This document shows, piece by piece, positions 679 through 57,200 of a stretch of 64,000 nt of DNA (its first letter is position 1; each line of letters begins with the position of its first letter). The notes beneath the pieces are model-generated. The model was given only the letters and a program-made list of their open reading frames with translations. It had not been told where the DNA came from and searched no databases. The DNA is from Mobula hypostoma. Its lineage: Eukaryota. The DNA lies in contig NC_086108.1 of the NCBI RefSeq assembly GCF_963921235.1, positions 37,264,001 through 37,328,000 on the forward strand. Direction: 5' to 3'. The position numbers and the translations under genes were made by a program.

Positions 679-2712
679 GTTAGAAGCAGAAGTAAGGCAA
701 AAAAAAAGGAGTGCATTTACATAATGAACTTTTCATCTATTCCATGTTCTGGCATGGAATAGCAACACAATGAAGTCATTTTGAAATAGGCATGATTGAA
801 ATATGGGAAAAACTGTGGTCATAAGTTGCAGAGTGATCATGACCAAAATATATTGAATGAGGGTTAAATATTACTCAATGCAAGAGACATAAAAGTTAAG
901 CATTAAAAGGATAATTGAGCAGCTGTCTTTAGAATGCAGAAAAACCATTTGGCTAACACTTTTGCAGGTTCTTTGCTACCTGATAGAACTAAATTACAAG
1001 TGAAATTAGCACATAGCAAGTTAAATTCTGAAGTAGAACAAATTCACAGAAACTTTTGTCAAGCATAGGGATATAATTTATAATTTTCTTTTCATTTATT
1101 TTAACCTTCTTCAGGATGGCTGCAGCAACATTCAGAAATCAAGTTCACTGCTTATAAACCACAGAGTTGTACTTCCAGAGGGCAAGTTAAAGATAGCTCT
1201 ATGAAGTTTGTATGTAGACCAGGATTTCATGATGATGATGAGGTTCATGACTTGGTTCAGATTACTGAATTCCGAAGCGGAGGATTCATCACTTACTTGT
1301 TACAGTGCCTGATCACCTACATCTGGTTTGATCCATGCCCTTCAAGACTAATAAACCTTGCCATTCTTCTAGAGCAACATGCATATGTTTACAAAGAAGC
1401 CTCAGCCAATTCTGGTGTGGAATGAATATTCAGCTGTCGCATTTGACCTTGCAACAATTAATTTATATTTAAAAGTGCGCACAGATTAACTTTTAAGCAT
1501 CCTCTTACAGATGCCAAGCAATGCCCCTCCTATCAGTCTTTGGGAATCCTCTTGTCTGGAACATTTCCAGTTTTTTAAATATTGGATAGGTTAAAAAAAT
1601 CTTTAAAATTTATGTTTTTCTGCAAAACTGCTCTTGCTATTAAAATAGCTCAAGCTTCAAACTAAATTCTAGAAAGAGCTTTGAAAGTTTAGTGTTCCTT
1701 GAATATTATTATAAGGCAGGGAAACATAAAAAAGTCATGCTGTGCAAGTTGGTCTGAATGTTGTTGTGATGTTGAAATCATCTTTATTACCCAAAACAAT
1801 ATATATTGTTTTCTTTTCAACAACTTTCAAGATTTTCCCTGTTATATTCAAGCACATTACCGCAAACTACCACAAAGAATATTTTACCCTCAAGGGATTT
1901 CATTACTGGCATAGTATCTACAAATGCAGTTAAATACAAAATGTAGTTAAAGACGTGGGAAAGAAGCAGATGGGGAGAGTGTGATGTGGTGAAGCCCGAC
2001 ACCAGTTTTACCACTGAAACTGATGGGAATGAGCAGCTATATTCCACCGGGCTCAAGTCAAGCGAGTTTGGTGCAATCTTCATGCTGTTCCAAATGACCA
2101 TAAACTCTAAGAACAATGAACTCCATGATTCTATGCAAGTATGAGAAATAATCAATTTGCCCTTATATGGCATCCTTCATGAACTCTGGACATCTCAATT
2201 GTTTTAAATTCTTTTTTTAACAACATTAATTCTCTCACAATGTTTGTATAAAAGATTTCTACCAGAACAGGCAATGTTTTACTTTTTCTACTCAATGCAT
2301 TCTTCTTTGTACATAGAACATGTATATTTTCATTAAACAGCAAAGCAATAGCTATGTCCACAGTCGTATTCAGCACACAGGAGGTTAGTTGGGGATGCAG
2401 CAAGAAAAACTTGCACACATTGAGATTGCCATAAAGATGACTCACTAAAGATAGTACTGCTGCAAAAATAGACCCAAAAGAACATGTGACTTGCTAGTAA
2501 AATCTACAGCCATCTAACATTTCCATGCTCTACACTTCAGAAGCAATATTGGAGCTAGAATATGCCCAAGCAGAGTATGCAAAGGTCGTAGCATCAGATA
2601 GGTCCTTCGAATGCTTACCTGTGTTGTGGCACCTTGCAGGCAGTGATTTTACAAGATCTGTTTGACTATCTATTGGACCTCAAAATACTACTGCCTGAAC
2701 ATTTGTAATACA

Positions 2713-3999
2713 TAGAAACATAGAAAATAGGTTCAGGAGTAGGCCGTTCGGCCCTTCAAGCCTGCACCGCCATTTAATATGATCATGGCTGATCATCCAA
2801 CTCAGAACCCTGCCCCAGCCTTCCCTCCATACCCCCTGATCCCTGTAGCCACAAGGGCCATATCTAACTCCCTCTTAAATATAGCCAATGAACTGGCCTC
2901 AACTGTTTCCTGTGGCAGAGAATTCCACAGATTCACCACTCTCTGTGTGAAGAAGTTTTTCCTAATCTCGGTCCTAAAAGGCTTCCCCTTTATCCTCAAA
3001 CTGTGACCCCTCGTTCTGGACTTCTCCAACATCGGGAACAATCTTCCTGCATCTAGGCTGTCCAATCCCTTTAGGATTTTATACGTTTCAATCAGATCCC
3101 CCCTCAATCTTCTAAATTCCAACGAGTACAAGCCCAGTTCATCCAGTCTTTCTTCATATGAAAGTCCTGCCATCCCAGGAATCAATCTGGTGAACCTTCT
3201 TTGTACTCCCTCTATGGCAAGGATGTCTTTCCTCAGATTAGGGGACCAAAACTGCACACAATACTCCAGGTGTGGTCTCACCAAGGCCTTATAGAACTGC
3301 AGTAGTACCTCCCTGCTCCTGTACTCGAATCCTCTCGCTATAAATGCCAGCATACCATTCGCCTTTTTCACCGCCTGCTGTACCTACATGCCCACTTTCA
3401 ATGACTGGTGTATAATGACACTCAGATCTCGTTGCACCTCCCCTTTTCCTAATTGGCCACCATTCAGATAATAATCTGTTTTCTTATTTTTGCCACCAAA
3501 GTGGATAACTTCACACTTATCCACATTAAATTGCATCTGCCATGAATTTGCCCACTCACTCAACCTATCCAAGTCACCCTGCATCCTCTTAGCATCCTCC
3601 TCACAGTTAACACTGCCACCCAGCTTCGTGTCATCCGCAAACTTGGAGATGCTGCATTTAATTCCCTCATCCAAGACATTAATATATATTGTAAACAACT
3701 GGGGTCCCAGCACTGAGCCTTGCGGTACCCCACTAGTCACTGCCAGCCATTCTGAAAAGGTCCTGTTTATTCCCACTCTTTGCTTCCTGTCTGCTAACCA
3801 ATTCTCTATCCACATCAATACCTTACCCCCAATACCGTGTGCTTTAAGTTTGCACACTAATCTCCTGTGTGGGACCTTGTCAAAAGCCTTTTGAAAATCC
3901 AAATATGCCACATCCACTGGTTCTCCCCTATCCACTCTACTAGTTACATCCTCAAAAAATTCTATGAGATTCGTCAGACACGATTTTCCTTTCACAAAT
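2713..3999 (-). mobile_element. Young CR1 LINE, 5'-truncated (RT C-terminal part of ORF2 plus 3' UTR)
   Basis: ORFs 3384..3995 and 2802..3371 carry YLDFQKAFDKVPH, GVPQGSVLGP, KFADDTKL and RPHLEYCVQFWSP, separated by one in-frame TAG; (TTTCTATG)n tail at ~2710-2730; possible TSD AATACA (2707-2712 / 3997-4002). Confidence 0.95.
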
Positions 4000-5029
4000 A
4001 CAGTACACCATACAATGTAATTTCAGTAAATCAAACAATGGTAAAATTAGCAAGTTTCTGTGAGTTCCCTGGCATTGTTTGGAACAACAGTGAATCAAAA
4101 GTCATACCATATAGTTTACCCAGTTATCTGATGTACACTTACACTCTGCAGAACTTGTTGAATGGGCAGGATGTGGGAAATTAAAAGTAGCTGGGAAGGA
4201 GGATCACCACCAAGAGAGGAGTAAATCACCAGCAAAAAGAAGGATTATAAACTGTGAGGGAGATATAAGCAACCAAAATGCCGGCAGTTTTTCCAGGTTA
4301 ATATTTAGCATCATTGGACAGCAATGTTACTTGCCATCTGCTTCCAAAATTAATAATGACATGCAAAAAATAAGAGAGCTGCAACCCTACTGTCGAGGAG
4401 GCTAATGAATCATTGGGTTGTAAGATGGTCTTCCTGCTTCAATGGAGTAAAACGGTTTTGTTTGATCTGATGTGGGGACAAATACAACCAGAGAAGTGTT
4501 CAGAGTTTGGAAGTGTACCTTGGCCAAATGATTTTGGACGAGTGAAAGTTCAATCTGAGGCAAAATGTAGATTGGAAACATTTTCAGAATGTCATATTGA
4601 GTCTGCATCATCTGCCAAAGTCATTAGCCAGCCGAATGTGCTGATTCGTAATGGAAATACACAAAAGTATCAGGAAATACCTGGATATGATCTAAAAAGA
4701 AGCAGTAATTGCCTTTAACCTGACCTACTGGAGTTTATTTATTGGCTCAATTCAGCTACAATTTTGACTGCTCTCTGAGTTAGTCATGCAGACAGATACT
4801 CTGACAACATTTAAGGATCTAGGCAAACTCTGAGTCACCAAGGCACAGAAGGCTAGTGTTTGTAAATGGTAAGCGGGATTAGTGTAGCTGGTTACTTGAA
4901 GGTCAGCACGGATATGGTAGGCAGATAGGCCTTTATCTGTACAGTGTAATTCCATGATTCTATTTGCTAGCTAGGCACCAGACACTGGAAATACTTTTTC
5001 CACTACTTATATTTAAAATAGCTAAAGGC

Positions 5030-6170
5030 AAACTGTATATGTGAGTTTATTTCAGGGAATCTGAAATAATAAAGCAAATAAGTCTCATTGCTATAATATT
5101 GGACTTTGGTGCGATCAGACTTAGAACATTGTGTGCAGTTTTGGTCCCCTAATCTGAGGAAAGACATCTTTGCCATAGAGGGAGTACAAAGAAGGTTCAC
5201 CAGATTGATTCCTGGGATGGCAGGACTTTCATATGAAGAAAGACTGGATGAACTGGGCTTGTACTCATTGGAATTTAGAAGATTGAGGGGGGATGTGATT
5301 GAAACGTATAAAATCCTGAAGGGATTGGACAGGCTAGATGCAGGAAGATTGTTCCCGATGTTGGGGAAGTCCAGAACGAGGGGTCACAGTTTGAGGATAA
5401 AGGGGAAGCCTTTTAGGACCGAGATTAGGAAAAACTTCTTCACACAGAGAGTGGTGAATCTGTGGAATTCTCTGCCACAGGAAACTGTTGAGGCCAGTTC
5501 ATTGGCTATGTTTAAGAGGGAGTTGGATATGGCCCTTGTGGCTACAGGGGTCAGGGGGTATGGAGGGAAGGCTGAGGCAGGGTTCTGAGTTGGATGATCA
5601 GCCATGATCATAATAAATGGCGGTGCAGGCTCGAAGGGCCGAATGGCCTACTCCTGCACCTGTTTTCTATGTTTCTATGTTTCTATTATAAATAGTTTTC
5701 TTCTCCCCATCTAAGAAAAGAGAGGCTTGCCTGTTTTAGAGATAAAGCCAACAAAGTTTTACTCGAACCATACTTGAGACAGGGGAACTGTCTCAAGAAA
5801 AATCGTGTGGAGTAGAAATGTATTCGCCATTGGTTAGAAGGCAGAATATCTTCAAAGATTCTCAGAAGGTTTGACAGAGAAGATGCTGAAAAAATTATTT
5901 CCTCAGGTTGGCATGTTGAAAATCAAGGGTTATGGCTTTGAGAACAGATCTGGTCATTCAGTAGTAAGATGTAGAAGCATTTGGCTTTTGCACATTGTTG
6001 GAATTTTCTGCAGCAGAAAGGTATGGATGCTCATATGACGAGGATAAAAAGCAGATTTTTGGATACAAATGGAATCCAATGAGGAAAAAGTATTGAGAGA
6101 AAATAGAGAAGATCACTTCACATCTTATTGAAAGACAAATCTGACTTAATGGACAAAATAACATTCTCCT
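5030..6170 (+). mobile_element. Old decayed CR1 LINE interrupted by the young CR1 at 5128-5686
   Basis: 5' flank reads ..LVRSDLEH; 3' flank resumes with FSSPHLRKE and later FDREDAE..LFPQVGMLKIKGYG, matching CR1 GLDRLDAGRLFPMLGKSRTRGHS. Confidence 0.75.
5128..5686 (+). mobile_element. Young CR1 LINE 3' fragment (same family as 2713-3999)
   Basis: ORF 5106..5588 is nearly identical in protein to the C-terminal part of ORF 2802..3371; ends in (TTTCTATG)n tail. Confidence 0.95.
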
Positions 6171-6177
6171 AATTCCC

Positions 6178-7362
6178 TTAGGACGAGGGAGATGTCTTCC
6201 TTTTTTAAAGAAAGGGGTTTCCCTTCCTCCACTATCAACTCTGCTCTTAAACGCATCTTCCCCACTTCACGTACATCTGCTCTCACTCCATCCTCCCGCC
6301 ACCCCTCTAGGAATAGGGTTCCCCTGGTCCTCACCTACCACCCCACCAGCCTCCGGGTTCAACATGTTATTCTCCGTAACTTCCGCCACCCCCAACGGGA
6401 TCCCACCACTAAGCACATCTTTCCCTCCCCACCTCTCTCTGCATTCTGCAGGGATCACTCCCTATGCGACTCCCTTGTCCATTTGTCCCCCCCATCCCTC
6501 CCCACTGATCTCCCTCCTGGCACTTATCCGTGTAAGCAGAACAAGTGCAACACGTGCCCTTACACTTCCTCCCTTACCACCATTCAGGGCCCCAAACAGT
6601 CCTTCCAGGTGAGGCAACACTTCACCTGTGAGTTGGCTAGGGTGATATACTGCGTCCGGTGCTCCCAATGTGGCCTTTTATATATTGGCGAGACCCGATG
6701 CAGACTGAGAGACCGCTTTGCTGAACACCTACGCTCTGTCCGCCAGAGAAAGCAGGATCTCCCAGTGGCCACACATTTTAATTCCACATCCCATTCCCAT
6801 TCTGACATGTCTATCCACGGCCTCCTCTACTGTAAAGATGAAGCCACACTCAGGTTGGAGGAACAACATCTTATATTCCATCTGGGTAGCCTCCAACCTG
6901 ATGGCGTGAACATCGACTTCTCTAACTTCCGCTAATGCCCCACCTCCCCCTCGTACCCCATCTGTTACTTATTTTTATACACACATTCTTTCTCTCACTC
7001 TGCTTTTTCTCCCTCTGTCCCTCTGAATATACCCCTTGCCCATCCTCTGGGTACCCCCTCTTGTCTTTCTTCCCGGACCTCCTGTCCCATGATCCTCTCA
7101 TATCCCTTTTGCCTATCACCTGTCCAGCTCTTGGCTCCATCCCTCCCCCTCCTGTCTTCTCCTATCATTTTGGATCTCCCCCTCCCCCTCCAACTTTCAA
7201 ATCCCTTACTCACTCTTCCTTCAGTTAGTCCTGACGAAGGGTCTCGGCCTGAAACGTCGACTGTACCTCTTCCTAGAGATGCTGCCTGGCCTGCTGCGTT
7301 CACCAGCAACTTTGATGTTTGTTGCTTGAATTTCCAGCATCTGCAGAATTCCTGTTGTTTGC
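6178..7362 (+). mobile_element. Penelope-like element (PLE), 5'-truncated, with GIY-YIG endonuclease
   Basis: ORF 6192..6935 has CKQNKCNTC, VIYCVRCSQCGLLYIGET..RLRDRFAEH and RLEEQHLIF..LGSLQPDG; pyrimidine-rich 3' region with hammerhead motif. Confidence 0.93.
7227..7262 (+). ncRNA. Minimal type I hammerhead ribozyme motif in PLE 3' region
   Basis: AGTC-CTGACGA-AGG(GTCTCGG)CCT-GAAA-C-GTC-GACT: stem I AGTC/GACT, CUGAnGA and GAAA cores, stem II AGG/CCT, palindromic ACGT stem III, GUC cleavage triplet. Confidence 0.85.
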
Positions 7363-9222: not shown

Positions 9223-12200
9223 TGTCAGGAAATGTGGAGGAGGCTTGATCCAAAAGCAGAGCATCAGAGACGTTTCAGCAATGAATTACAACTTTAATAA
9301 TAGATTGCAAAACTTAAAAGCTATGTGCAGCTACAAAGCGCGAGAAAACAGATATTAAGCACCACGGGGAGCAAAGTAACTGGAGGCAGGGAGCAACTGG
9401 TTGAGGCTGGCTGGTCCAATGGGTGAACAAGGACTGTGGCTGAGAGCTGGGTTTAAAAGGGCTGTTGGTCATTATTTGGGAACAAGTAGCAGGTGATTCT
9501 TGCTCATTGGGAATAGCCCGGGAGAATCTGGACAGGTCTGGTGGAACTCCTGAATGAGCGATGGATCCAGGATGAAACCGAACAGCACCAAGACCTCTCC
9601 TCCAGTCTGTAGCCTTCCAAGTCAACCAGGTATAGCACACCCTGCCCATTATGACATGAATCTATCAATCAGTGAACTGTGCATACAGGACTAGCTCACT
9701 ATCCTAGGTTCCGGAGCTGTAGGCTAGGGTGAGTGGAGTGGTCCATGGACAACTGGCTTGAGGTAAGACATGTGGAAGGTAGATGTGATTCCGAGAGTCG
9801 GTGGCAGCTGGAGATGGTACGTGACTTGTTTGATGTGATGGATAGTTTTTAAGGGACCAGTGCACCAGGACAAGAGCATGTGGGAGTCAGTGCACAGGGG
9901 CAAATCTCAGGTGGATAGCCAAATACAGTCCCAGGCTGGAAAAGTCTGGATGTGCACCACCAGTGGTTGGGTTAGCAGGAGTAAGCATGGTTGTCAGCTA
10001 GAGTGCCCTCTGTGCCCGCTTCCAAGCATTCCAGTAACAACAAACGGTGGACGGGACCTTCGCAGTTCGCTCCTCCATGGGGGTCAATGGGTTTCGTAGC
10101 CATAAGGCACTTTTAGCAGAGAAGATGTGCAGACTGTGGGACAGTTTGGTCAACAGCAGATACTTCTTCCATGTGGAAGAGTTAGAGGCAGTAAAGCACT
10201 TTTCGGCTTGCTTATTGATATCTTCTGACTGAAGGTTGGTCAGCGAATAATAGCCAGAGAACAAACCCACTGAGGTGCAGAGGAGGGAACAGAAGGCTTG
10301 CCAGAAGCAAGTGAAGAATCGCAGGCTCCAGTCCAACATAATATCCTGAGGGATACTGTGGAGGCAAGTTAAATGTTTTAGAACCAGGTCTGCTATCACA
10401 GCAGCTGACGGAAGTTTGGAGAGCGCAAAGAAGTGGGCTGCTTTGGAGAACCGGTCCACCACTGTCATGATCAGTGGCCCCATCGCAAGGGAGCAAACCC
10501 GTGATGAAATCCATGGATTGTGGGACAATGGGTATTGGGGTGCCAGCAAGGACAGTGGGAGAACAGAAGGCTACTTCTTTTCTTTTGAGGAATTGGACTG
10601 GTGCTGAGGACAGGCAGCAACAAACTGACATACATCTGTGCTCATGGTGGCCCACCAGAGCTGGCATAATGGAAAATCCAGAGCCTGCCGTGCACACTGG
10701 GTGGCCAGTGAGGGCTGAAGTGGTGAGGAGTGGGCCCACTGGAGTGCCTGAGAGTGCACAGCCACTGAGGTGTAGATGCTGTTGTCAGGTGTTGGCAAGT
10801 GCAAGCATGTACTGTAGGGCCTGGCAGATCTTGTTCTCAAGATCCCAGATGATTGGCTGAGAATCTGTGAGGATGGAATGATGGGCTGAGGGTCGACTGG
10901 TTGTGACTGGGCCTTCACCTTAGTGTACTTGGAGCTAAGTCGGTAGGATATGGTGAAATTGAATTGCTCAAAGAAGAGGGCCCAGATTAATTTGGTGGGT
11001 TAATTAATGGGTTAATTTGGTGGGTTTGTTCTATGGATATGGTGGTCAGCCCAGATTAGGAAGGGCTTAGTGTTTCCCATCAGCCAGTGACTCCATTCTT
11101 CAAAGGACCATTTAATGGTCGGTGTCTCGCTGTCTTCTACTTCAAAACAGCACTATGTAGAGTTGAACTTGTGAGAGAAGAAGGCACAAGGGCATGTCTT
11201 CCCATCTGGTTCTCACTGGGAGAAGATGGCCCTGCTGCCCACCTCAAATGCATCCACCTCTGCCACAAAAGGTAAAGGATTTCAAATGGTGGAGAATGGG
11301 AGCAGAGGTTAAGTATCTCTTGAGCTCCTTGAAAGCATGGTCTGCCACAATAGACTAGATTACTTGTGAGGTAGGTGATTTGGTGAAAGAGGTGAGGAGC
11401 AGTGACTTGTTTATAGTTCCCGATGAAATGGTGGTAGAAGTTGGAGAAACTCAAATCACGCTGTAGCTGTTTGAGGGGGCACGGCTGAGGTTATACAATG
11501 ATGTTGCACACTTTCTCTGGGCCCATGGTTGTGCCTTGGGGTGAAAGGATATAACCCAGGAAGGAAATGACTGGGATGTGGAACTGACATTTCTCTAACT
11601 TGCAGTACAGTTGGTTTTTGAGGAGACGATGAACAACTGAACAGAAGTGACAGGTGTGATCTTGGGGGTTCTTGGAGAAGATGAGGAGGTCATCAAAGTA
11701 GATGAACACATACCTGTGTAGCATATCTCGGAGGATCTAATTAAGGTGGCTTGGAAAATGGCTGGACTGTTGCAAAGTCCAAAAGGCATCACCAAGTATT
11801 CATAGTGGCCAACTGTGTTATGAATGCCATCTTCCAATCATCCCCCTGGCGGATGCAGATCAGGTTGCATGAATACCTGGGTCTTGTGGAGTGTTTTGAA
11901 CGCACGTTCCATCAAAGGGAGAGGGTCATGGTTCTCAATGGTGAATTTATTGAGTCTACAGTAGTCGATGCTTGGATGGAGACCCCCCTCCCCCCACCCC
12001 AATCTTTCTTTTTGGAAAAGAAAAGCCTTGCGCCAGCTGGGAATGAGATAATGAAATGAAGCTGCGCTGTAGAGCTTTTGCAATGTAATCATTTATGGCT
12101 TGGGTCTCAGGAGGGGAGGGGGAGAGCAGACGATGTTGGAAGGCCTGGTGTCCGGTAGTAGGTCGATCAAGCAGTTGTGTCATCTGTGAGGTGGCAGGGA

Positions 12201-17704: not shown

Positions 17705-18819
17705 TGTCATAAGGGCGGTGGCTGGGAACGGACCCAAGTGCAAGACACAGACACTGAAGTACCAGGGACAGGACTAGGATACAGGGTGAGAACTAGGACA
17801 TGGACATGAAAACCCGAAACCTGGAACAGGACTGGACAAGAGAGCTAGGGGCCCGGGCTTGGACTCTGAGCCAGAGACTGGACAAGGACCCAGAACCTGG
17901 GTCTTGCCTCTGGCTCGGACCCCGGAACTAGACAAGGACGTGACTTGGCTGGCAGGCTGGACGAGGCTGGAGTCTTCAAACTTGAGGTGAGGCTGGAGAC
18001 AAGAGACTTGAGGCTAGGCTTGAGACCAGAGGCTTGAGGCGAGGCTTGAGACCAGAGGCTCGAGGCAAGGCTGGAGACCAGAGACTTGAGGTGAGGCTTG
18101 AGACCAGAGACTTGAAGCTTGGCTTGGGGCTCGGCTCGGCTTGAGACTTGAGGCGAGGCTTGGGGGCTTGAAGCTCCTCCTGGGTCCTGGGCAGGGCGCA
18201 GTACTCCTGGGCAGGGCACGGATCTCCACCCGACGGAGGCAAGGGACAGGAAGGGACAGAACCCACCTCAGGGTAACGGCAATCTAGCCTGGCTTACCCG
18301 ATTGAGGCAAGGGACAGGAAGGGACAGGACCCACCTCAGGATAACGGCAATCTGGCCTGGCTTACCTGACGGAGGCAAGGGACAGGAAGGGAGCTAGGTA
18401 CAGGGTGGCTCCAACGCAAGACTTCAGGCGAGATGAGGCGAGAGTTACCAGCAAGACAAGGCAAGGCTTCAGGCAATGCAAGGCGAGGCGAGAGCTACCG
18501 GCAAGACAAGGCAAGGCTTCAGGTAATGCAAGGCGCGGCAAGAACTTCAAGGTGACGCGAGAGTTACCGGCAAGAGAAAGTAAGGCTTCAGGTGAGGAAA
18601 CAGAAGGCAGGGGAAGGGATACGAGGAGTAAGGACAAGAACAATCCAGCACCCTGCCCTGGTCTCTGGAGGTATTTATGCAGCCAGCGCCAATGAGAATC
18701 AGCTGCCTCAATTAGTGCTCAAACAGGAACAGAAACAGGGTAGACAGGAAAACCTGGAGCAAGGGTCGATGGACCGGACCGTGAACCGGAATGCGGACCT
18801 CACGGATCGGACCATGACT
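17705..18819. mobile_element. Solo LTR nested in Gypsy gag, containing internal tandem repeats
   Basis: Termini TGTCAT...ATGACT; degenerate 5-bp TSD TCTAC/TCTGT; the gag frame FTL|REIST rejoins across it. Confidence 0.8.
17960..18595. repeat. Tandem repeats inside the solo LTR: ~26-nt GAGACTTGAGGCGAGGCTTGAGACCA units, 68-nt unit x2.3 (starts 18236, 18304, 18372), GAGTTACCGGCAAGACAAGGCAAGGCTTCAGG units
   Basis: Directly visible periodicity. Confidence 0.85.
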
Positions 18820-22749: not shown

Positions 22750-25255
22750 AATACTTGTGCCAACCGACTGATGGGAGTGATCAAGGACACCTTCAATCTC
22801 ACAATGCTGCAGTCGGAGGTTCTCACCTGCTTCAGAAGGGCAACAGTTATATCAGTGCCCAGGAAGAGCAGGGTGAGCTGCCTCAATGACTGTCCCCAGT
22901 CGCACTCAACTACTGTGATGAAGTACTGAGAGACTGGGCACGGCCAGGATCAATCCCTGCCGAAGCAAACACTTGGACAAATTGCTGCAGTTTCATCACT
23001 GCAATAGGTCTACAATGGATGCAATCTCAATGGCTCTCCGCTCAGCCGTGGGTCACCCGGACAATAGTAGTACAGTACTTACATCAGGCTGCTATTTATT
23101 GGCTACTGCTCAGTGTTCAACCCAATTATACCCTGTTCTAATCAACAAGTCCAAAACCTGGGCATCAGTACCTCCCTCTTCAACTGAATCCGTGACTTCC
23201 TGACCTGGAGACCACAGTCAGTGCTGATCAGAAATAAAATCTCCTCGCTGACAACCTACACTAGCGCACCCCAAGGCTGAGTGCTTAACTTATCGCTCCA
23301 CTCTCTGCACCCACAACTGTCTGGCTAGGCAGAGCTCAAACACCATCCATGAATTTGCCTATGACGCACTGTCGTTGGAAGAATGTCAGATGGTGAGAAG
23401 GAAGCATACAGAAGCGAGGAAGATCATCTGGATAAGTGGTGTCACAGCAACAATCTTGCACTCATCAGTAAGACCAAGGAATTGATTGTGGACTTCAGGA
23501 GCCAGGAATCAAGGGAATGCACACAATCTTCATCGACAGATCAGTAGTGGAGTGGGTGAGCAGTTTCAAGTTTTTGGTCGTCAACATCTTTGAAGATCTA
23601 GCATTCTGGGCTCAACATCTTGATGTAGTTACAAAGAAGGCATGACAGTGGCTATAAATAAGAGTTTCAGGAGGCGTAAGTCAAAGACTGTCAAATTTCT
23701 ACAAATATTTGATGGAGAGCATTCTAACGGGTCGCTGATCACTCTCTGATATGAAGGGGCCACTGGACAGGATGGGAAGAAGTTGCAGGAAGTTGTAAAC
23801 TCAGCCAGCTCCATCATGGGCACTAACTACTCCAGCATCGAGAACACCTCCAAAAGATGATGCCTCCAGAAGGCCACTTCCATCATTAAGGACACCTATC
23901 ACACAGGACATGCCCTCTTGTCATTGCTATCACCAGGGAGGAGGGATAGGAACCTGAAGACACACACTCAATGTTTCAGAACAGCTTCTTCCCCTCTGCC
24001 ATCAGATTTCTGAATCATCAATGAACCAAAGTAATAGACAATAGACAATAGGTGCAGGAGTTGGCCATTCTGCCCTTCGAGCCAGCACCGCCATTCACTG
24101 TGATCATGGCTGATCATCCACAATCAGTACTCCGTTCCTGCCTTCTCCCCATATCCCTTGATTCCACTGTCTTTAAGAGCTCTATCTAACTCTTTCTTGA
24201 AAGCATCCAGAGATTTGGCCTCCACTGCCTTCTGAGGCTGAGTATTCCACAGATCCTCAACCCTCTGGGTGAAAAAGTTTTTCCTCAGCTTCGTTCTAAA
24301 TGGCCTACCCCTTATTCTTAAACTGTGGCCTCTGGTTCTGGACTCCCCCAACATCAGGAACATGTCTCCTGCTTCTAGCGCGTCCAATCCCTTAATAACC
24401 TTATATGTTTCAATCAGATCCCTTCTCATCCTTTTAAATTCCAGTGTATACAAGCCCAGTTGCTCCAATCTTTCAACATATGACAGTCCCGCCATCCCGG
24501 GAATTAGCTTCGTGAACCTACACTGCACTCCCTCATTAGCAAGAATGTCCTTCCTCAAATTTGGAGACCAAAACTGCACACAATACTCCAGGTGTGGTCT
24601 CACCAGGGCCCTGTACAGCTGCAGAAGGACCTCTTTGCTCCTATACTCAACTCCCCTTGTTATGAAGGCCAACATGCCATTAGCTTTCTTCACTGCCTGC
24701 TGTACCTGCATGCTTACTTTCAGTGACTGATGAACAAGGACACCTAGATCTCGTTGTACTTCCCCTTTTCCTAACTTGACTCCATTCAGATAGTAATCTG
24801 CCTTCCTGTTCTTGCCACCAAAGTGGATAACCTCACGTTTGTCCACATTAAACTGCATCTGCCATGCATCTGCCCACTCACCCAATCCGTCCAAGTCACC
24901 CTGCATTCTCATAACATCCTCCTCACATTTCACACTGCCACCCAGCTTCGTGTCATCTGCAAATTTGCTAATGTTACTTTTAATCCCTTCATCTAAATCA
25001 TTAATGTATATTGTAAATAGCTGCGGTCCCAGCACCAAGCCTTGCGGTGCCCCACTAGTCACTGCCTGCCATTCTGAAAGTACACTACCTCATGCTTTTT
25101 TGCTGTCTTTTTCTACAACTATTTAATTTATTGATATACATTTCTTATTGTAATTTTTAGTTTTTATTATAATGTATTGGTCTGTACTGCTGCCATAAAG
25201 CAACAAATTTTAATGACACAAGCTAATGATATTAAACCTGATTCCGATTCTGAGA
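22750..25255 (+). mobile_element. Decayed Rex1/Babar-type LINE interrupted by CR1 at 24034-25076
   Basis: HCNRSTMDAISMALRS; AAGACCAAGGAATTGATTGTGGACTTCAGG (KTKELIVDFR); 3' tail AAACCTGATTCCGATTCTGA at ~25235-25253. Confidence 0.8.
24034..25076 (-). mobile_element. Young CR1 LINE, 5'-truncated, uninterrupted 312-aa RT C-terminal ORF
   Basis: ORF 24124..25062 (GAPQGLVLGP, KFADDTKL, RPHLEYCVQFWSP); (CTATTGT)n tail; TSD AAAGTA at 24028-24033 and 25077-25082. Confidence 0.95.
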
Positions 25256-25653
25256 TTTTGGTTTTTTTTTGATACAGTATTGGTAGACAGCATCTTGCAG
25301 CACAGCAGTAGCTTCAACTGATGGATGTTCTTAACAGGATTGAAGTTGCTGTTCTAGCATTCTGTCACAAAAATCCATGCAGGTAATAACATGGCACTTG
25401 AAACCAGGAATAGGCCCTAATTGGAGAGAGATGACCTGCTTTACTACAAGAGACTGTTTCTGCCTGAGCCACTGTTGTAGAAAGAGCTTCTGAAAGACTT
25501 GAATCTGTAAGGATGTTTTTACTGTTCACCACCTCAAAACCAAGCCCTACCTCTTGGGATATTCCCTGTCAGTGATAGTTGCCCTGTATGCATGTCTCCA
25601 ACACCCAAAGTCCTATCAGCCATTGGAAATGTGTAGTGCCTGCTCCCATTACT

Positions 25654-26212
25654 GGTTTTTCGTCCATCGTTGACGTCGATGAGGACCTCGACACCATTAT
25701 GATGGTGTTGAGACTAGCGCGTGATTTGGATTTAAGTGAGGGAGAGTTGCGCAGCGTCAGCCTCACTCTCTCTTCCCAATTCCCATCTGGATCCAGTGGC
25801 AAGACAGAGTCTAGATGGCTGGAGATGGGACTAGGCGCAGTGGATGACCAGGACGTCTTCTGTGTCTTGTCCTGCTCTACATGTTCCACGATGCTTGCAG
25901 AGACCGCCTTCTTGACCGTTGGACCTTCCGTAGGTCTCGTCCGCTCAATCCGCCGGAGTCTGTCTTCACATGCTGGGATAGACAACTCCCTATCACACCG
26001 AGGGTTTGAGACCCGTCGGCTTCCCTCACCTGGTTTAGCCGGCTTGTCGAAGCCGTTGCCCGGGGTGTGGCCGCTGTCGCATGCAAACAGCTACGGGGAG
26101 CCACAGGTAAGAGCTGAGTGCCAGGTGGGGACCAAAGGTGGACTAACCGCCCTGAAAAGGACACGACGTGTTCCCCCACCAGAGGTGATACCCCTCCCTG
26201 ACACCCCTCTCT
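25654..26212 (-). mobile_element. Full-length non-autonomous RTE-type retroelement (~560 bp)
   Basis: Perfect 11-bp TSD CTCCCATTACT (25643-25653, 26213-26223); CpG-rich (young); RTE-like 5' and 3' ends; no RT ORF. Confidence 0.85.
26025..26207 (-). ncRNA. HDV-like self-cleaving ribozyme at the 5' end of the RTE-type element
   Basis: Minus strand: P1 GGGGUGU/ACACCCC, P2 CUUACCUG/CAGGUGAG, P3 GGC/GCC, L3 UCCCCGU, P1.1 CC/GG, P4 CGGCUU-CGAC-AAGCCG, J4/2 GCUAA with the putative catalytic C. Confidence 0.8.
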
Positions 26213-26809
26213 CTCCCATTACTACATACCATTCAAAGTCAAGTCTTACACACAGCACCTTTATTATTTAAAGTGGCTTTTAGAGTTTCCACCATGGTTT
26301 GAGATTAGGCTGTAAAATTTATATCTCTCACATAGCATCACAGCAAAGAGTTTCTATGCGTAATTCTGCAGAAATTATTTCATTGGATAAGGAGCATCAA
26401 GTACCCCACGCAGGGTTATCCATGCAGTGCTGCATCAGAGTTTTACTTAAATTGTAGCGTATTTACCAAGTTTTTTTTTCAAAATTGGAGAGGGAATTTT
26501 GGAAACTTTATGCTTGCAGGAAAATTCATTTCTTTCAGAAGACAAAGCAGGCAAATTTTTGTTTACATGGAGATTTTAATCCAATTATTATTTATATTAA
26601 ATATATTTACCAAGTTAAGGTGGTTAAGACAATTAGTATTCCTAGAAACCAATTATAAAATATCAAGTTAATCTCTCTGAACAGAAATCTAGGAATGTCT
26701 TTTCAAATTCTTTAACCATTTGTGTATTACCAAAGTTTTTACTCCCATCGCATTTTACACTTGCAACAGTACAGTCATTGACTGTCATCAATAGGTTTGA
26801 TGGTGTGGT

Positions 26810-29585: not shown

Positions 29586-29896
29586 ACTGAAACAAATGGC
29601 AAATCTATTAGTAATTCTAAATTACAGTAAGCAGTCACATTTTCATTTTGCCTATTACTAAAACCTATGGAATTTATTCCTGCAGCTGCTGGAACCTATT
29701 GTTGAGTCATTACCTGCTATACCAAAAACACTGTTAAACATGTTCAGCATATTGATCACATCACATTCAAATGAAAAAAATCAGTCTGTATACTATTTGC
29801 TAATTTCATGCATTGCACTTGTGCTGTGGAATATTTCAAGGAAATTACATGGTTCCAGTTTAATCTGAGGCAACAGAAAGAATACAAATGAAATAC

Positions 29897-30680
29897 TAGC
29901 AACACACATCAAAGTTGCTGGTGAACGCAGCAGGCCAGGCAGCATCTGTAGGAAGAGGTGCAGTCGACGTTTCAGGCCGAGACCCTTCGTCAGGACTAAC
30001 TGAAGGAAGAGTGAGTAAGGGATTTGAAAGTTGGAGGGGGAGGGGGAGATCCAAAATGATAGGAGAAGACAGGAGGGGGAGGGATAGAGCCAAGAGCGGG
30101 ACAGGTGATAGGCAAAAGGGGATACGAGAGGATCATGGGACAGGAGGTCCGGGAAGAAAGACAAAGGAGGGGGGGACCCAGAGGATGGGCAAGAGGTATA
30201 TTCAGAGGGACAGAGGAAGAAAAAGGAGAGTGAGAGAAAGAATGTGTGCATAAAAATAAGTAACAGATGGGGTACGAGGGGAAGGTGGGGCCTTAGCGGA
30301 AGTTAGAGAAGTCGATGTTCATGTCATCAGGTTGGAGGCTACCCAGACGAAATATAAGGTGTTGTTCCTCCAACCTGAGTGTGGCTTCATCTTTACAGTA
30401 GAGGAGGCCGTGGATAGACATGTCAGAATGGGAATGGGATGTGGAATTAAAATGTGTGGCCACTGGGAGATCCTGCTTTCTCTGATGGACAGAGTGTAGA
30501 TGTTCAGCAAAGCGGTCTCCCAGTCTGCGTCGGGTCTCGCCAATATATAAAAGGCCACATCGGGAGCACCGGACGCAGTATATCACCCCAGTCGACTCAC
30601 AGGTGAAGTGTTGCCTCACCTGGAAGGACTGTTTGGGGCCCTGAATGGTGGTAAGGGAGGAAATGTAAGGGCATGTGTAA
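29897..30680 (-). mobile_element. Young PLE copy, nearly identical to 6550-7330
   Basis: GVIYCVRCSRCGLLYIGETRRRLGDRFAEH..RLEEQHLIFRLGSLQPD; same 3' region. Confidence 0.93.
29962..29997 (-). ncRNA. Minimal type I hammerhead ribozyme motif (identical to 7227-7262)
   Basis: Reverse complement AGTCCTGACGAAGGGTCTCGGCCTGAAACGTCGACT. Confidence 0.85.
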
Positions 30681-31094
30681 GGCCACAAATGAAATACTGT
30701 AGGCTTGGCTTCCAAAGGTTGGAAGCATAATTTTGAATTTTCTACCAGTAAGGCTAACAATACAACCACAAATAAAGCAAAGAGAATGGAAAAGCAGAAT
30801 ATTTTGTGAGGCAAGTGAATCCTGGTTTTCAGAGAGATCAAAATGACCATGCACAAGAAGCAAATAGGGTACTGCTGCCCAGTAGACCACGTGTTTTAGG
30901 CTGTGCTGATATATTACACTCAGTGGCCACTTTATTCAGGACCTCCTGTACCTGATAAAGTATCTACTGAGTGTGTGTCCGTGATCTTCTTGTGTAGCCT
31001 ATCCACTTCAAGGTTAGACATGTTGTGCATTCAGAGATACTTTTCTGCACACCACTGTTGTAACATGTGGTTATTTGATTAAGGTATCTTCCTG

Positions 31095-34000
31095 TTAGAA
31101 GGAAGGACAGGAATAGAAAGATAAGAGAACCCTGGATGTCCAGAGAGGTGATGAATTTAGTCAAGAGAAAAAAGGAAAAGTACTTAAAGCTACAGAAGTT
31201 AGGATCAAATGGAGCACATGAGGATTATAAAGAAACCAGAAAATAACTAAAGAAGGGAATTCGGAAAATCAGAAGGGGCCATGAAAAGTCCTTGGCAAGT
31301 AGGATTAAGGTGAATCCCAAGGCATTCTCTACATACATCGGGAGTAAGAGGATAACTAGGGAGAGAGAAGGACCACTCAAAAATAAAGGAGGGGAACATT
31401 TGCTTGGATGCAGAGATTGTGAGTGAGGTACTTAATGAATTCTTTGCTTCAATATTTACCAAGAAAAATGACATGGAGGACCAGGAGATCAGTGCTGAGT
31501 GTATAAATACAGTATGTTAGGGTGTTTAGAGGTCAAGGAGGAGGAAGTGTTGGGCCTCATAATGAGAATTAAATGCCATCTTAGTCCATTACTTTTTGAT
31601 ATTGCCTTGGAACCTTCAGCTATTGGTATTCGAGACTCACCTAATATATTTGGCATTACCCGTGGGAATAAGACACACAAGTTATCTCTATATGCAGATG
31701 ATTTATTACTATATATCTCTAACCCTGAGAAATCCATTCCGGCAGTAATATGCCTGCTTGCTCAGTTTAGTAGCTTTTCTGGCTATAAATTGAATCTTAG
31801 TAAGAGTGACCTTGTTCCATTAAATATGCAGGTTCCCATTTATAGGCGTTCACCATTCAGATTCACTACTGATTATTTTACCTATTTGGGTAGTAAAATT
31901 ACTAAAAAGCATAAAGACTTATTTAAGTTTAATTTTTTACCACTAATTAATCAGGTTAAACAAGTGTTTACTAAATGGTCTCCATTATCTTTATCACTGA
32001 TCGGCCAAATCAATGCTATCAAAATGATTATTCTACCTGAATGTTTATATCTATTTCAAGCGATACCAATTTTCATTCCTAAATCCTTTTTTGATACTGT
32101 TGATTCTAAAATTTCCTCTTATATATGGCAGAATAAAAATCCCAGATTAAGTAAAAAATACTAACAAAAGTCCAAAAAAGACGGTGGTTTGGTACTGCAG
32201 AATTTAAGATTTTATTATTGGGTAATTAATATTTGATATTTAATATTTTGGACACAAGATTGGGATATAATTCCAAGTCCACACTGGGTTAACCTTGAAC
32301 GTAATTCTGTACAAGGGTTCTCATTGGTTTCTATTTTAGGAATTTTGCTTCCCTTTGCTCTCTCTAAATTGAATAAACAAATGACTAACCCAATAATTAA
32401 ATACACTGTACAAATATGGTTTCAATTTCATAAATTTTTTGGTTTGAACAAATTTATTTTATCAAGTCCTATTATGTCTAATTTTTTTCCAACCCTCTGT
32501 AATGGATCAAGCCTTTTTGATATGGAAAATGAAGGGTATAGTATGTTTACGTGATTTATTCTCTGATAACTGTTTCATGTCTTTTGAACAGTTGTCAAAT
32601 AAATATAATTTGACCAGATCCCAGTTTTTTATATAAGACACTTTTTAAATACTATGCTTCCTACCTTTCCGACTTCACACTCAACCCTTATCCGAAGGGT
32701 TTAATAGCAATATTTATGACATAATTATGAAAATGCAACCAGGCATATCCAATAAAATTAAGAATGAATGGGAAAGGGTACTTCAACTTCAATTATCTAT
32801 AGAGAAATGGGAGAAAATTTTTCAATTAGTTAGTTTTTCTTCCGTGTGTGCTAAACATACGTTGATACAATTGAAGGTGGTGCATAGGGCCTACATTTCT
32901 AAAGATAAACTAGCTCGCTTTTACTCTCATATAAATCCTGTTTGTGACAGATGTCATTCTGAAGTAGCTTCTTTCACTCATATATTCTGGTCTTGCCCTC
33001 TTTTGAAAAAATGTTGGAAAGATATTTTTGATATCATTTCAACAGTGTTGCATATTGATTTGCAACCTCATCCTATTACTGCAATTTTTGGTTTACCAAT
33101 GATGGAACATAGTTCTCTATCCTCTTCAGCCCATTCGATGATTGCATTCGTTACATTAATGGCTAGAAGATCCATTCTATTGAATTGGAAAGAAAAAAAT
33201 CCCCCTACTACATTTCAACGATTTTCCCAAACTATATCATGTTTGAATGTAGAAAAAATCAGAAGTGCTACTTTTGATCCTTCAGTTAAATTCGAGGAAA
33301 CTTCGAGGCCATTTATTCAATATTTTCATATGATGTAGTCTGACCTTTTCCAAATCCTTTTAATTAACCTAGGATATATGGATGGAGGAGCGGAGTTAAC
33401 GACATTAATGACGTATTCGATGCAACATATCAGCCTAGCCTTGATTTGTTTTGTTTAGATTAGTTCTTTTTTTTTGGTTCAGTTTAGTTTTTTTTAAATT
33501 TGGGTTTTTTTTGATATTTTTTCTTTTTTTTCTCTGCCATGTTCAATCATACTAAGAGTTTGGGAGGTCGAATAAACTGGTATTATCTGTAGTTTTTAAT
33601 TGCGTATGTCAATTATTAACAATGGAATCACAATCTCTCTGTATTAATACTGTTGTTATGTCAGTATGTTTGAAAATCGATAAAAAGATTATAAAAGAGA
33701 ATTAAAGTGGATGTCCCCAGGGCCTGATGGTATTTTCCCCAAGTTATTGAAGGTGGCAAAAGACAAAATTTCTGGGGTCTTTCTGTCCTCTCTAGGCACA
33801 GTGAGATCCTAAGAACTGGCAAGGGGATAATGTTGTACCTCTACTTAAGAAGGCAACAACAGGAAATCCTGGGAATTTTAGACTGATGAGCCTCACGTCA
33901 GTTGTAGGGAAATAGCTGGAAAACATTCTTAGGGATTGGCTAGATGAACATTTTGAAACCCATGGCCTTATTAGGGAGAGCCAGCATGGCTGTGTGCAGG

Positions 34001-54214: not shown

Positions 54215-57200
54215 TGTTCTGGGACACCAGTTCCTGAGAACAGCCTTCTCAACAGTTCAACAGTGTGCAAGACTGTAATGGAGACACTTATGGCCACTAT
54301 GTATCTGCATCCACTACTACCAAAAAATAAATTGTGCTTATGAATGGTCTGGCAAAATCCTTTGCCAGGAAAATGCAGACCATTCATAGGGATGGAGAGG
54401 TACTGCTCTTGCAATCTTCTGGACATGTTGGCATCACAAACAGTGCATGGTAAACTGCTCAATCTGCTGACCTATTTCCAGACCACCAGGCCAAGTCAAG
54501 CCTATCATTTTGAACACATCTAGGTGACCAGCATGTAGCTCTTCCATCACTTTAACTCTCAACTTGGATGGTATAACTACTTTCAATCCCTACACAAGGC
54601 AACTCCCCATCAACGGCAAGTTCGTCTCAGCAGTGGTAAAAAATGGGGGAACTGGAAACTCTGCTGCACATTCCATCCATTTTGGGTAGCCATGTAGATC
54701 TGAGACCATGTGGGTTTTTTCTGGTTTCATTTCTGCCATAACAGGGAGACTTTTAATTTGAACTTGGTGGAATATGTCAAGAGGAATGTCCACTTTTATA
54801 AATCTTCCAGGTATTTCCTTTTCCAGGGGTAAAAGAGACAATTCATCACCATTTCCATGACTAGCTGTCCACTTGTATTCATTCTTGTATTTGTATCCAC
54901 CGAGAAACAGCCCAACTCTATATTTGTGCTGCTGCTGTTAGTGGAACACTCTTCAGTGGATTGAAAATGGACATCAGTGGTTAATGATCAGTAATGAATT
55001 AAGCTACTCCTTATGGATACTAGTTGAAATGTTTTACACTCCGAAACCAACTCAAGGTTTCCCTGTCAATCTGTATATAATTTTTCTCTTAGTGGTAAGG
55101 GAGCGTGATGCCAAGGCTATGGGACGTTCACTTCAGTCACTCACAGCATGTGACATGACTGCACCTATATTATAAGCTGAGGTACCACAAGCAAGCTTTA
55201 CTGGACGATATGGTTCATAATGTATTTGATTACAGTGTCCGACATCACCATTTCCTTTATCGTTTGGAAAGTTGCCTCACACTGCTTTGCCCATTGCCAT
55301 TTCTTCCCGATCTGTAGTAAGGGTTGAAAGGTTCAAAGGTTCAAAGGTTCATTTATTTTCAAAGGTATACAACTCTGAAATTCTTCTTCTCCCGATAGCC
55401 ATGGATCCAAGAAAGAAAAGAATATCATGATCGTCAACACCCCCCAATCCCTCCTCTCCGCTAAAAAGAACAAAAATGGAACAGGCACATCAACCCCCAA
55501 ATCCTCCTCTCCTGCACATAAAAACATGAGAAAGATTGGGCTAAAAATACAGAATATAAGACAATTGTAAGACTGAAAGAGTGTCTGTAGTCCAAGTCCA
55601 TACCAAAAGTGCAGAAAACCTATCTAGCATTCTCCAGGCACAGAGGCAGCCTCTCCTCTCTCCAATAGCAGAGTGATCCCCCAGCGATCAAAAGGCAGGT
55701 AGTTGGTGCCCATTTCCTGCATTCACATTGATGTTTCAATCTCTCTCGTCACTTTAATCAGTGAAAAATGGAAGCTTTAATTGGTGAAATGGAGTCGATC
55801 TTTGACTTGTGTCCTGCTCACCATGAGGTTCCCACTCATTGCCTCTGCCTCCCGGAACCCTCTCGGAGACTCCAGAGCTCTGAAACATCTCAGCGATCTC
55901 TAAACTGCAAATCACAGGTTCCAACAGTTCCAAAATCAAATTGAAGGTGAAAAACAAACATAAAAGACATAAAAGAAGTGAAGTATATGGTTTCATGATC
56001 TATCCAGATGATGTCTACCGAAGGAGCATTGTATGCAGGTACGATCTTAACTGGAATGAGTTCATGGAGTGGAGCACAGTAGCCTGGTTTGGCAGAAACC
56101 TGTTATAGTAATTGACAAATCCTACAAAGGACCATACTGTGACATACCCTTTGGCTTGGGATATCCACCACTCTTGAATTTTCTCAGTACACTTATGTAA
56201 TCCTTGTGTGTTACTGATGTGACCACAGAAAATGATGATTGGTTTAAAGTATTCACACTTGGCACATCATGCTCTGAACCCATAAATTTCTAATCCAGTT
56301 AACACTGTCTTGAGATCGTGGAGATATTCCTTGCCATCCTTACATCAAGATAGCATTGAGTACCTTGGTGTCTTTGCAGCACCTGATCCATAACTTTCTA
56401 TGCAGAGACAGATGCTACTCCAAAATAAACCTAATATAGTGATAATGCCCTTAGTGAGTGTTTATGTTGACAAAGAAACAGTTTGGACTCTTCTTCTGAC
56501 TCCATCTGTAGGTAGGCCTCGGCTAAGTCCACTTTGCTGAAGTGTATTCCTCCAGAAAGGTTTGCAAGGATATCCTCTATCCTGAGCAGAGGATATTGAT
56601 CTACTTTCAATACTGAGTTGATGGTGACTTTAAAATCACCACAGAACTTGAAAGACCCATCCTTCTTGGCTACTGGGACCATTGGTGTTATCCATGGGTC
56701 CCACTCAAACTTGGGAAGAATTCCTTTAGCCTCCATGCAACCTAGCTCACTGGCTACATTATCACAGATGGTATAAGGAACTGGATGGGCTTTGTAAAAC
56801 TTGGATGTAGCAATTTTACTTAATACTATTTTACCCTCAATATATTTAAGTTTTCCAATAGTTGATTCTATTGCAGGGGATGTGGCATGAAAAGTGGTGG
56901 CTCGGACTACAATCAAGTTGTAGTTGTCTCAGCCAATCACAGCCTCACAATGCTGGCTGTCCTGTTTTTAGCACATGCAAGTCCAATGTGGTTGTTAGCT
57001 GTATTTCTCTGTTAATAATGTCATTCCCACAGGAATTATCTTTTCTCTGGTATAAGTTCTTCGTTGCATATGTGCAGGCTTCAGTTCCGTATCTTTGAGT
57101 TGTTGTTCAAACTTGTTTTGTATTGTGACTGAAACAACTAAGTCAGTGTCCAATTCTATTTTAATTCATTTGCTGCTCATTTCTGGTGCAAGCCATTTTG

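Follow-up and report, generated by a model that had tools for sequence, protein, structure and literature searches.

A 554-nt insertion on the minus strand of a 64,000-nt stretch of Mobula hypostoma DNA (the window) raises two questions: what sets the 5' end of such an element, and from which autonomous element did it arise? The original prediction described a ~560-nt non-coding mobile element that carries an HDV-like fold at its head and depends on an RTE protein. This description is supported by the genomic copies and by the alignment to a parent. We consider it highly probable that a bipartite, non-autonomous RTE is present here in 5'-truncated form, that its first ~190 nt form an HDV-like ribozyme in which J1/2 is long and L3 contains a hairpin, and that the family spreads by the mechanism proposed below.

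Copies, anatomy and parent of the element

The locus belongs to a non-coding family of ~563 nt that is dispersed in the M. hypostoma genome. The search covers 3.48 Gb and yields 3,600 candidate matches; all 40 matches that were scored are 96-100% identical to the 554-nt insert. An exact core pattern is found 1,349 times, a 3'-end pattern with up to three mismatches 2,460 times and a 5'-end pattern including the conserved leader with up to one mismatch 1,992 times, with a control count of 0 in each case. The tails of the copies are CAA or AACC repeats, and their flanks are unrelated from copy to copy. Target site duplications (TSDs) of 7-13 nt are present at many of the 30 loci checked, the anchor having failed for several. 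The element aligns to UTR sequence only, and two stop-to-stop frames overlap it.

All features of the locus lie on the minus strand and are given in window coordinates. The 5' copy of the TSD, 11 nt in length, occupies 26213..26223 and is identical to the 3' copy at 25653-25643 (25643..25653), which confirms the predicted distance of 5 nt between TSD and G26207. The five bases in between (26208..26212) do not belong to the family and stand at the place of the family P1 5' strand. In the ribozyme region (26207-26025), every segment named in the original prediction is found at its position. The remaining body derived from an RTE 5' UTR (25713..26024) ends past a conserved GAGAGTG...CACT motif. 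It is followed by the junction hairpin (25687..25712), whose 5' arm corresponds to the parent 5' UTR and whose 3' arm corresponds to the parent 3' end, with the deletion breakpoint in the loop at about 25700. A 3'-terminal stem-loop derived from the RTE 3' end (25662..25686) and a short tail (25654..25661), which is (CAA)n or (AACC)n in other family copies, complete the insert.

Retroelement fragments are abundant elsewhere in the window (2710-5680, 6145-7334, 24041-25089, 29890-30895, 31499-33338, 9998-10570 and 56431-56928), and we take their frames to resemble CR1, Penelope, L1 and Gypsy proteins. The window also holds two CR1-like copies in inverted orientation with 1.8 kb between them, and a tandem array with a 26-nt period at 17936-18143.

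A DUF6451 search leads to three RTE-like families in the genome. The DUF6451 RTE with a GAA tail (L071) was rejected as a partner, as none of the 35 loci of this kind matches the element. The young family L076 has an intact 1129-aa frame with APE and RT assigned by Pfam, but its body is only 75% identical over 282 nt, which makes it a sister and not the parent. A 5'-UTR pattern gives 84 genome matches, and 16 of them, counted by eye, belong to a closer family, the parent. Seven copies of this family were examined: three match element positions 1-521 at 90.8-93.1% identity, hairpin included, and four are 5'-truncated. A full-length, decayed parent copy has its own 8-nt TSD and APE/RT homology, and its last 46 nt match element positions 518-563 at 39 of 46 positions. 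In both parent copies that were followed downstream, the ORF is either broken or reduced by an internal deletion, the second copy being the internally deleted one. The parent is 57-67% identical to the sister L076 in long pieces, and the RTE clade name rests on likeness by eye to RTE-1_PSi and RTE-3_AMi. Judged likewise by eye, the body and 3' end of RTE-1_PSi, RTE-3_AMi and WALLSI, as given in the S1 entries of PMC5786205, resemble those of the element. Since the 5' and 3' parts of the element match the two ends of one RTE, the element is, on the basis of these alignments, the first ~520 nt and the last ~46 nt of an RTE LINE from which ~3.5 kb including the ORF have been deleted.

A young RTE family of the genome (G000:C50:39670234-39673623 and others) has several open frames of >1,000 aa. 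Its protein is 82-84% identical to relatives in environmental assemblies, which may point to horizontal transfer.

The size, TSD and RTE-type tail of the element are like those of the RTE-mobilised SINEs described in PMC5786205, which brings up the possibility of a SINE transcribed by polymerase III from a head derived from tRNA, 5S or 7SL RNA. The probability of such an origin is close to nil, as ARAGORN detects no tRNA, Rfam returns no match and the entire head is collinear with the RTE 5' UTR.

The RTE-derived head is also found with other bodies. A full-length RTE on a public contig (L095) is 77.8% identical over 500 nt. Two older families, B and C (L183-L190; G000 C1, C2, C5), have the first ~380 nt in common with the element at 69-80% identity, and their RTE-type 3' bodies and tails differ from those of the element. 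In these comparisons, the ribozyme head appears to behave as an exchangeable module. Among 12 examined 5' ends of the sister LINE, 8 are GC-rich and foreign, 2 contain parts of the ribozyme and 2 are unrelated. Sister-LINE ribozyme copies without the P1 5' strand have a common C-rich upstream sequence in 5 of 7 cases (L085, L088, L091-L093), as if flank had been carried along after loss of cleavage. The GC-rich foreign ends (8/12; L076 1-360, L078-L081, L083, L086, L087) look host-like. The translation of L076 2-151 gives a weak Glyoxalase_4 match (E 4.8e-5, below the cut-off) and is presumably MCEE-like.

The head could combine an internal RNA polymerase II promoter with the ribozyme, as Pr77 of L1Tc/NARTc does, and excision from host transcripts would then be unneeded. 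We regard this as possible, but less likely than not. In L1Tc/NARTc, as described in the relevant part of PMC3185411, the same 5' sequence is promoter and ribozyme, so the promoterless state claimed originally does not follow from the presence of a ribozyme. This precedent is joined by the expectation, expressed in passages of Kojima 2018 (PMC5786205), that bipartite LINEs are transcribed by Pol II from 5' cis elements, and by the length of the head, which at ~380 nt is twice that of the ribozyme and is kept in three families with different 3' bodies. The foreign GC-rich 5' ends (8/12) and the shared upstream sequence (5/7) in the sister LINE argue indirectly in the other direction, as they fit transcription from upstream with a ribozyme that normally trims the product.

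Register of P1 and the 5' end of the family

The original prediction assigned GGGGUGU at 26207-26201 to the P1 5' strand and G26207 to the first nucleotide of the family. Both assignments have to be revised. The 5'-end set comprises 40 loci, of which 39 were extracted and 35 anchored. In the anchored copies, positions -9 to -1 before the G26207 equivalent read GGGGTGTAT, with the majority base in 25-33 of 35 copies per column, and conservation ends at -10 upstream. Of the 35 copies, 21 have T at -10, 11 have A, 3 have G and 0 have C. The family sequence begins with two copies of the 7-mer GGGGUGU, and the family 5' end lies 9 nt upstream of the G26207 position. The expected pile-up of 5' ends at a GGGGUGU is present and the family 5' end does coincide with a P1 5' strand, but the repeat concerned is the first, 9 nt upstream, and not the one that begins at G26207.

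The G26207 strand has another partner. In the lowest-energy fold, it pairs with 26125-26116 (26206-26197 on the 5' side) and closes the J1/2 domain at its base; this domain spans 26116..26207 as a long hairpin. In an intact copy, the first-repeat register is favoured by 10.9 kcal/mol (-63.2 versus -52.3 kcal/mol), because the second repeat closes the J1/2 hairpin. The relatives point to the same register. P1 of L095 is GUGGUGU/ACACCAC, a two-sided change in the first repeat by which pair 2 turns from G-C to U-A. L119 and the sister LINE have A1-U at P1 pair 1, and the P1 strand of the sister LINE stands 30 nt before a shared anchor, which is the spacing of the first repeat. Families B (3/4) and C (1/4) align from base 1 of the first repeat. 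Contig pieces from sequencing runs begin at the first repeat in 3 of 4 runs, and as contigs they are silent on RNA ends and on expression. From the compensatory change in L095, the fold energy, the A1-U relatives and the alignments of families B and C, we conclude that the first GGGGUGU is the P1 5' strand, which places the predicted cleavage site 9 nt upstream of G26207.

Could G26207 still be G1 of the family, with the upstream 9 nt representing a 5'-end duplication from insertion? R2 can cleave at either of two duplicated P1 strands according to a passage of PMC3774820, two of the 35 copies (L001, L026) start at the second repeat, and in the window copy a fallback P1 formed by the G26207 strand costs only 0.8 kcal/mol versus an open P1, a value in which pseudoknot terms are uncounted. 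We nevertheless regard this register as very improbable. The leader is present in 1,992 copies, the 30-nt anchor spacing fits the first repeat, and the second repeat pairs with the P1 3' strand at only 3-4 of 7 positions in L095 and imperfectly in the parent copy L178, in L119 and in the sister LINE. In addition, the lowest-energy fold of the window copy has the flank paired with the P2 5' strand, in competition for P2.

With the first repeat as P1 5' strand, the state of the window copy can be described. It matches the 9-nt family leader at 4 of 9 positions and carries a near-private U at 26109 in P2, where 37 of 39 copies have C. About 9 nt, with the P1 5' strand, are missing from the 5' end of this copy. 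The bases at 26208..26212 appear to be non-templated in origin; deletions and non-templated bases are described for R2 5' junctions in a section of PMC3774820. Folding suggests that the window copy is probably a poor or dead ribozyme, which may cut weakly at G26207 in the fallback register or not at all.

Predicted ribozyme core and the L3 hairpin

The family fold contains P1, P1.1, P2, P3 and P4 in nested double-pseudoknot order, with P1 of the window copy available in the fallback form only. The P2 5' strand (26104..26111) belongs to a helix of ~11 bp in intact copies. The P3 5' strand GGC (26100..26102) is invariant in 10/10 rows of the alignment and is followed by the L3 core heptamer UCCCCGU (26093..26099), which includes the P1.1 CC (26098-26097). 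The L3 insertion of 21 nt (26072..26092) forms a 6-bp hairpin of -6.6 kcal/mol and is followed by the P3 3' strand GCC (26069..26071). The P1 3' strand ACACCCC (26068-26062) and the P1.1 GG (26061-26060) together span 26060..26068. The P4 hairpin (26040..26055), J4/2 (26033..26039) and the P2 3' strand (26025..26032) complete the core. By analogy with C75 of HDV, C26038 in J4/2 is the putative catalytic cytosine.

An HDV-like descriptor in which the L3 insertion is allowed matches the window at 26016-26216 and 0 of 1000 dinucleotide shuffles. Rfam gives no HDV-type match at gathering score or at E<=10. The original prediction had proposed a search permitting the insertion and had held that standard descriptors might miss the ribozyme. 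A tiled scan of the window with the descriptor matches 0 of 850 tiles, none of which spanned the whole element. The folding energy of the region is not unusual (z = -1.7), which is what a pseudoknot would lead one to expect.

Ten related rows, among them L119 shifted by two columns at P1, were aligned for the analysis of covariation. Two-sided changes occur in 7 of 30 pairs. Five are located in P4, where they affect 5 of 6 pairs, and P1 and P2 contribute one each. Pairs are intact in 93.6% of cells versus 27-53% in slid controls, and the covariation score is reached by 0 of 500 shuffles, a test that is inflated by the kinship of the rows. The covariation foreseen for P1, P2 and P3 is thereby observed in P1 and P2 but not in P3; P1.1 and the L3 hairpin are also without two-sided change in these 10 rows. 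The sister LINE adds further P1 and P2 changes, and P2 of L095 (5 bp) contains an inserted G. The J4/2 C is kept in 9/10 aligned rows, and the motif of the catalytic-type C and the next A is kept in five lineages. L3 positions 4-5 vary between families and contigs of other organisms, while the P1.1 CC is kept.

HDV-like ribozymes are also detected in a sample of relatives, 80 RTE loci from metagenome contigs with 76 usable 5' regions. The strict descriptor matches 4 of 76 RTE 5' regions (reverse strand 0, shuffles 0), and the relaxed descriptor at a score of >=19 matches 6 of 62 (controls 0 and 0). Six loci (L107, L108, L114, L129, L133 and L143) have HDV-like ribozymes with a canonical L3 in the 5' UTRs of distant RTEs.

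L3 of the element has a length of 28 nt, made up of the canonical heptamer and the 21-nt hairpin at its 3' side, and exceeds the 7-8 nt given for HDV and CPEB3 in the relevant part of bioRxiv 10.1101/2022.09.22.508989. The sister LINE and the six distant loci have an L3 of 7-8 nt. The hairpin is present in the parent RTE, in L095, in L119 and in older families of the same genome; the latter give 612 matches (control 0) with the hairpin in 19- and 21-nt forms. Its stem is kept in 10/10 rows, where one A-to-G change leaves a U-G pair. Within the genome, covariation of the hairpin was not found: of the 15 family-type matches with the U-to-C change (19 matches in total), 1 carries a compensatory partner. 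The inserted hairpin is present as originally proposed, but it is not specific to the SINE and comes from autonomous RTEs. Going by its distribution among these sequences, it is a trait inherited within one RTE lineage. In the simplest view, it would be a peripheral helix whose presence at the 3' edge of L3 is tolerated. A 28-nt L3 could impair activity. A kissing-loop role of the self-complementary loop, an idea with a CPEB3 precedent in a passage of bioRxiv 10.1101/2022.09.22.508989, is weakened by the 19-nt variant of family B, which has a non-palindromic loop; the loop of L095 could be CpG decay.

A fold with this insertion might not cleave at all. It could be kept for 5'-end protection, protein binding or translation, with a core disturbed by L3 and a 5' end set by the transcription start site. 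The L3 insertion adjoins the active-site loop, and the lack of two-sided changes in P3, P1.1 and the hairpin is compatible with such a role. We judge this unlikely, because P1 position 1 is where the 5' end falls in the SINE and its parent, in family B, in L095 and L119, and in the sister LINE. Even where P1 base 1 and its partner change together, the 5' end is still there, and the P1.1 CC as well as the J4/2 C and A are kept. The known HDV-like ribozymes of RTEs (Ruminski et al. 2011, as cited in passages of PMC5786205 and PMC6765202) share clade, position and five-helix topology with that of the element. The difference is the 19-21 nt hairpin inside L3.

Junction helix and origin of the bipartite element

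The two parts of the element meet, at the deletion breakpoint, in the 4-nt loop of a hairpin with 12 bp. This hairpin is exact in 13 of 34 parsed copies and folds in most of the others. In the parent, the two arms of this helix are ~3.5 kb apart. An unrestricted search for 5'/3' helices beats shuffles in 3 of 30 cases, two of them microsatellite artefacts, which is chance level; it kept returning the same place. The anchored test pairs a 36-nt window past the conserved 5'-UTR motif with a 34-nt window around the stop codon. From 41 loci reaching the C-terminal part, 5 with <300 nt upstream, 5 with a short 3' end, 8 without the anchor and 2 with a weak anchor were removed, and two own-genome LINEs were added, giving 23 RTEs. 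Cognate pairs average -19.1 kcal/mol versus -12.3 kcal/mol for non-cognate pairs (0/50,000 permutations), and the values for 11 dereplicated elements are -20.0 and -13.5 kcal/mol. For 13 held-out elements that were unused in the choice of the windows, we observe -18.2 versus -13.0 kcal/mol (p = 2e-5). In 6 of these 13, no other 3' end pairs better than the own one, and 5 of 13 outperform shuffles of themselves at 3/200 or better. Five shifted windows are not significant (p = 0.94, 0.88, 0.45, 0.25 and 0.057), nor is a window in the ORF (p = 0.97), and L103, L105, L106, L119 and L139 give no 5'/3' helix signal.

Helices near the 3' ends are also found in families B and C. In the supplement S1 portion of PMC5786205, 8 of 13 bipartite SINEs have junction arms of >=5 bp, 3 have 4 bp and 2 have none, counted by eye, without a chance control and among families that are not independent. 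RTE-3_AMi and RTE-1_PSi, as presented there, have 9-10 bp of 5'/3' complementarity and are one compensated pair apart. A 3'-terminal hairpin is known for plant RTEs from part of PMC6007223. We infer from the sequence comparisons that the helix works in the autonomous RNA, where it would bring the arms together for a template jump.

The following mechanism would account for the family. Transcription would start upstream, either as read-through or from a promoter at or before the element 5' end. The ribozyme would cut 5' of the first GGGGUGU and create a fixed 5' end, so that full-length copies would regenerate the ribozyme. The RTE protein would recognise the 3' module, composed of the junction helix, the terminal stem-loop and the CAA tail, and insertion would proceed by target-primed reverse transcription with a TSD of 7-13 nt. 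The element itself would have originated when reverse transcriptase copied the 3' arm of the helix and jumped to the adjacent 5' arm, skipping the ORF. The window copy would have lost its P1 strand at insertion. Precedents for the mechanism are contained in passages of PMC3414825, PMC3185411, PMC6765202 and PMC5786205.

The principle that a non-autonomous derivative of a LINE has its 5' end set by a ribozyme is established. Similar to the element, the R2 SIDEs (Eickbush and Eickbush 2012, PMC3414825, in the sections on these elements) are ribozyme-headed, internally deleted and non-coding, and their ribozyme has been shown in vitro to free the element from a co-transcript. SIDEs derive from R2 and occur in 28S rDNA only with few copies, whereas the element derives from an RTE and is dispersed with thousands of copies. 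NARTc, with the Pr77 head of L1Tc, is likewise a non-autonomous partner with a common HDV-like head, and Pr77 cuts at +1 (PMC3185411, in part). In contrast to the head of the element, Pr77 is a compact 77-nt ribozyme of the Ingi clade in trypanosomes with proven promoter activity. Promoterless RTE ribozymes are treated in a section of the review PMC6765202, and predicted RTE ribozymes and bipartite non-autonomous RTEs in sections of PMC5786205.

The closest counterparts are the bipartite RTE LINEs of PMC5786205 (RTE-N1/N2_Lch, RTESINE1/2, MAR4/WALLSI3 and Bov-A), which according to its pertinent passages consist, like the element, of the 5' end and the last 40-70 nt of an RTE with the ORF deleted and a microsatellite tail. 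The element differs in that its head is an explicit ribozyme with covariation and a hairpin in L3, in a head that is common to three families with different bodies, and in a junction within a 5'/3' helix, which those passages of PMC5786205 leave unmentioned. Ribozyme-headed, internally deleted LINEs are already known, and the addition made here is a deletion junction inside a cognate-specific 5'/3' helix. In the literature covered, the family, the L3 hairpin and the RTE 5'/3' pairing are undescribed; Ruminski 2011, Webb and Luptak 2011, Gogolevsky 2008, Repbase and patents may anticipate them.

Taken together, conserved long-range pairing of mid-5'-UTR sequence with the stop-codon region of RTEs might form part of the signal that the RTE protein reads and might set the breakpoints of bipartite elements, and in this lineage the L3-hairpin ribozyme might act as an exchangeable head that replaces the Pol III promoter on at least three RTE bodies. 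We see the chances for and against this joint proposal as evenly balanced. RTE-1_MD already serves for gene insertion with two RNAs, the template having both UTRs, as described in part of PMC13708176. Tolerance of a hairpin in L3 of an HDV-like ribozyme broadens the descriptor of the class and implies that copy-rich vertebrate examples escape Rfam. If true, a conserved 5'/3' helix would explain why two-part SINEs arise frequently from RTEs, and it would offer a reason for how such short elements arise that is testable by paired mutations.
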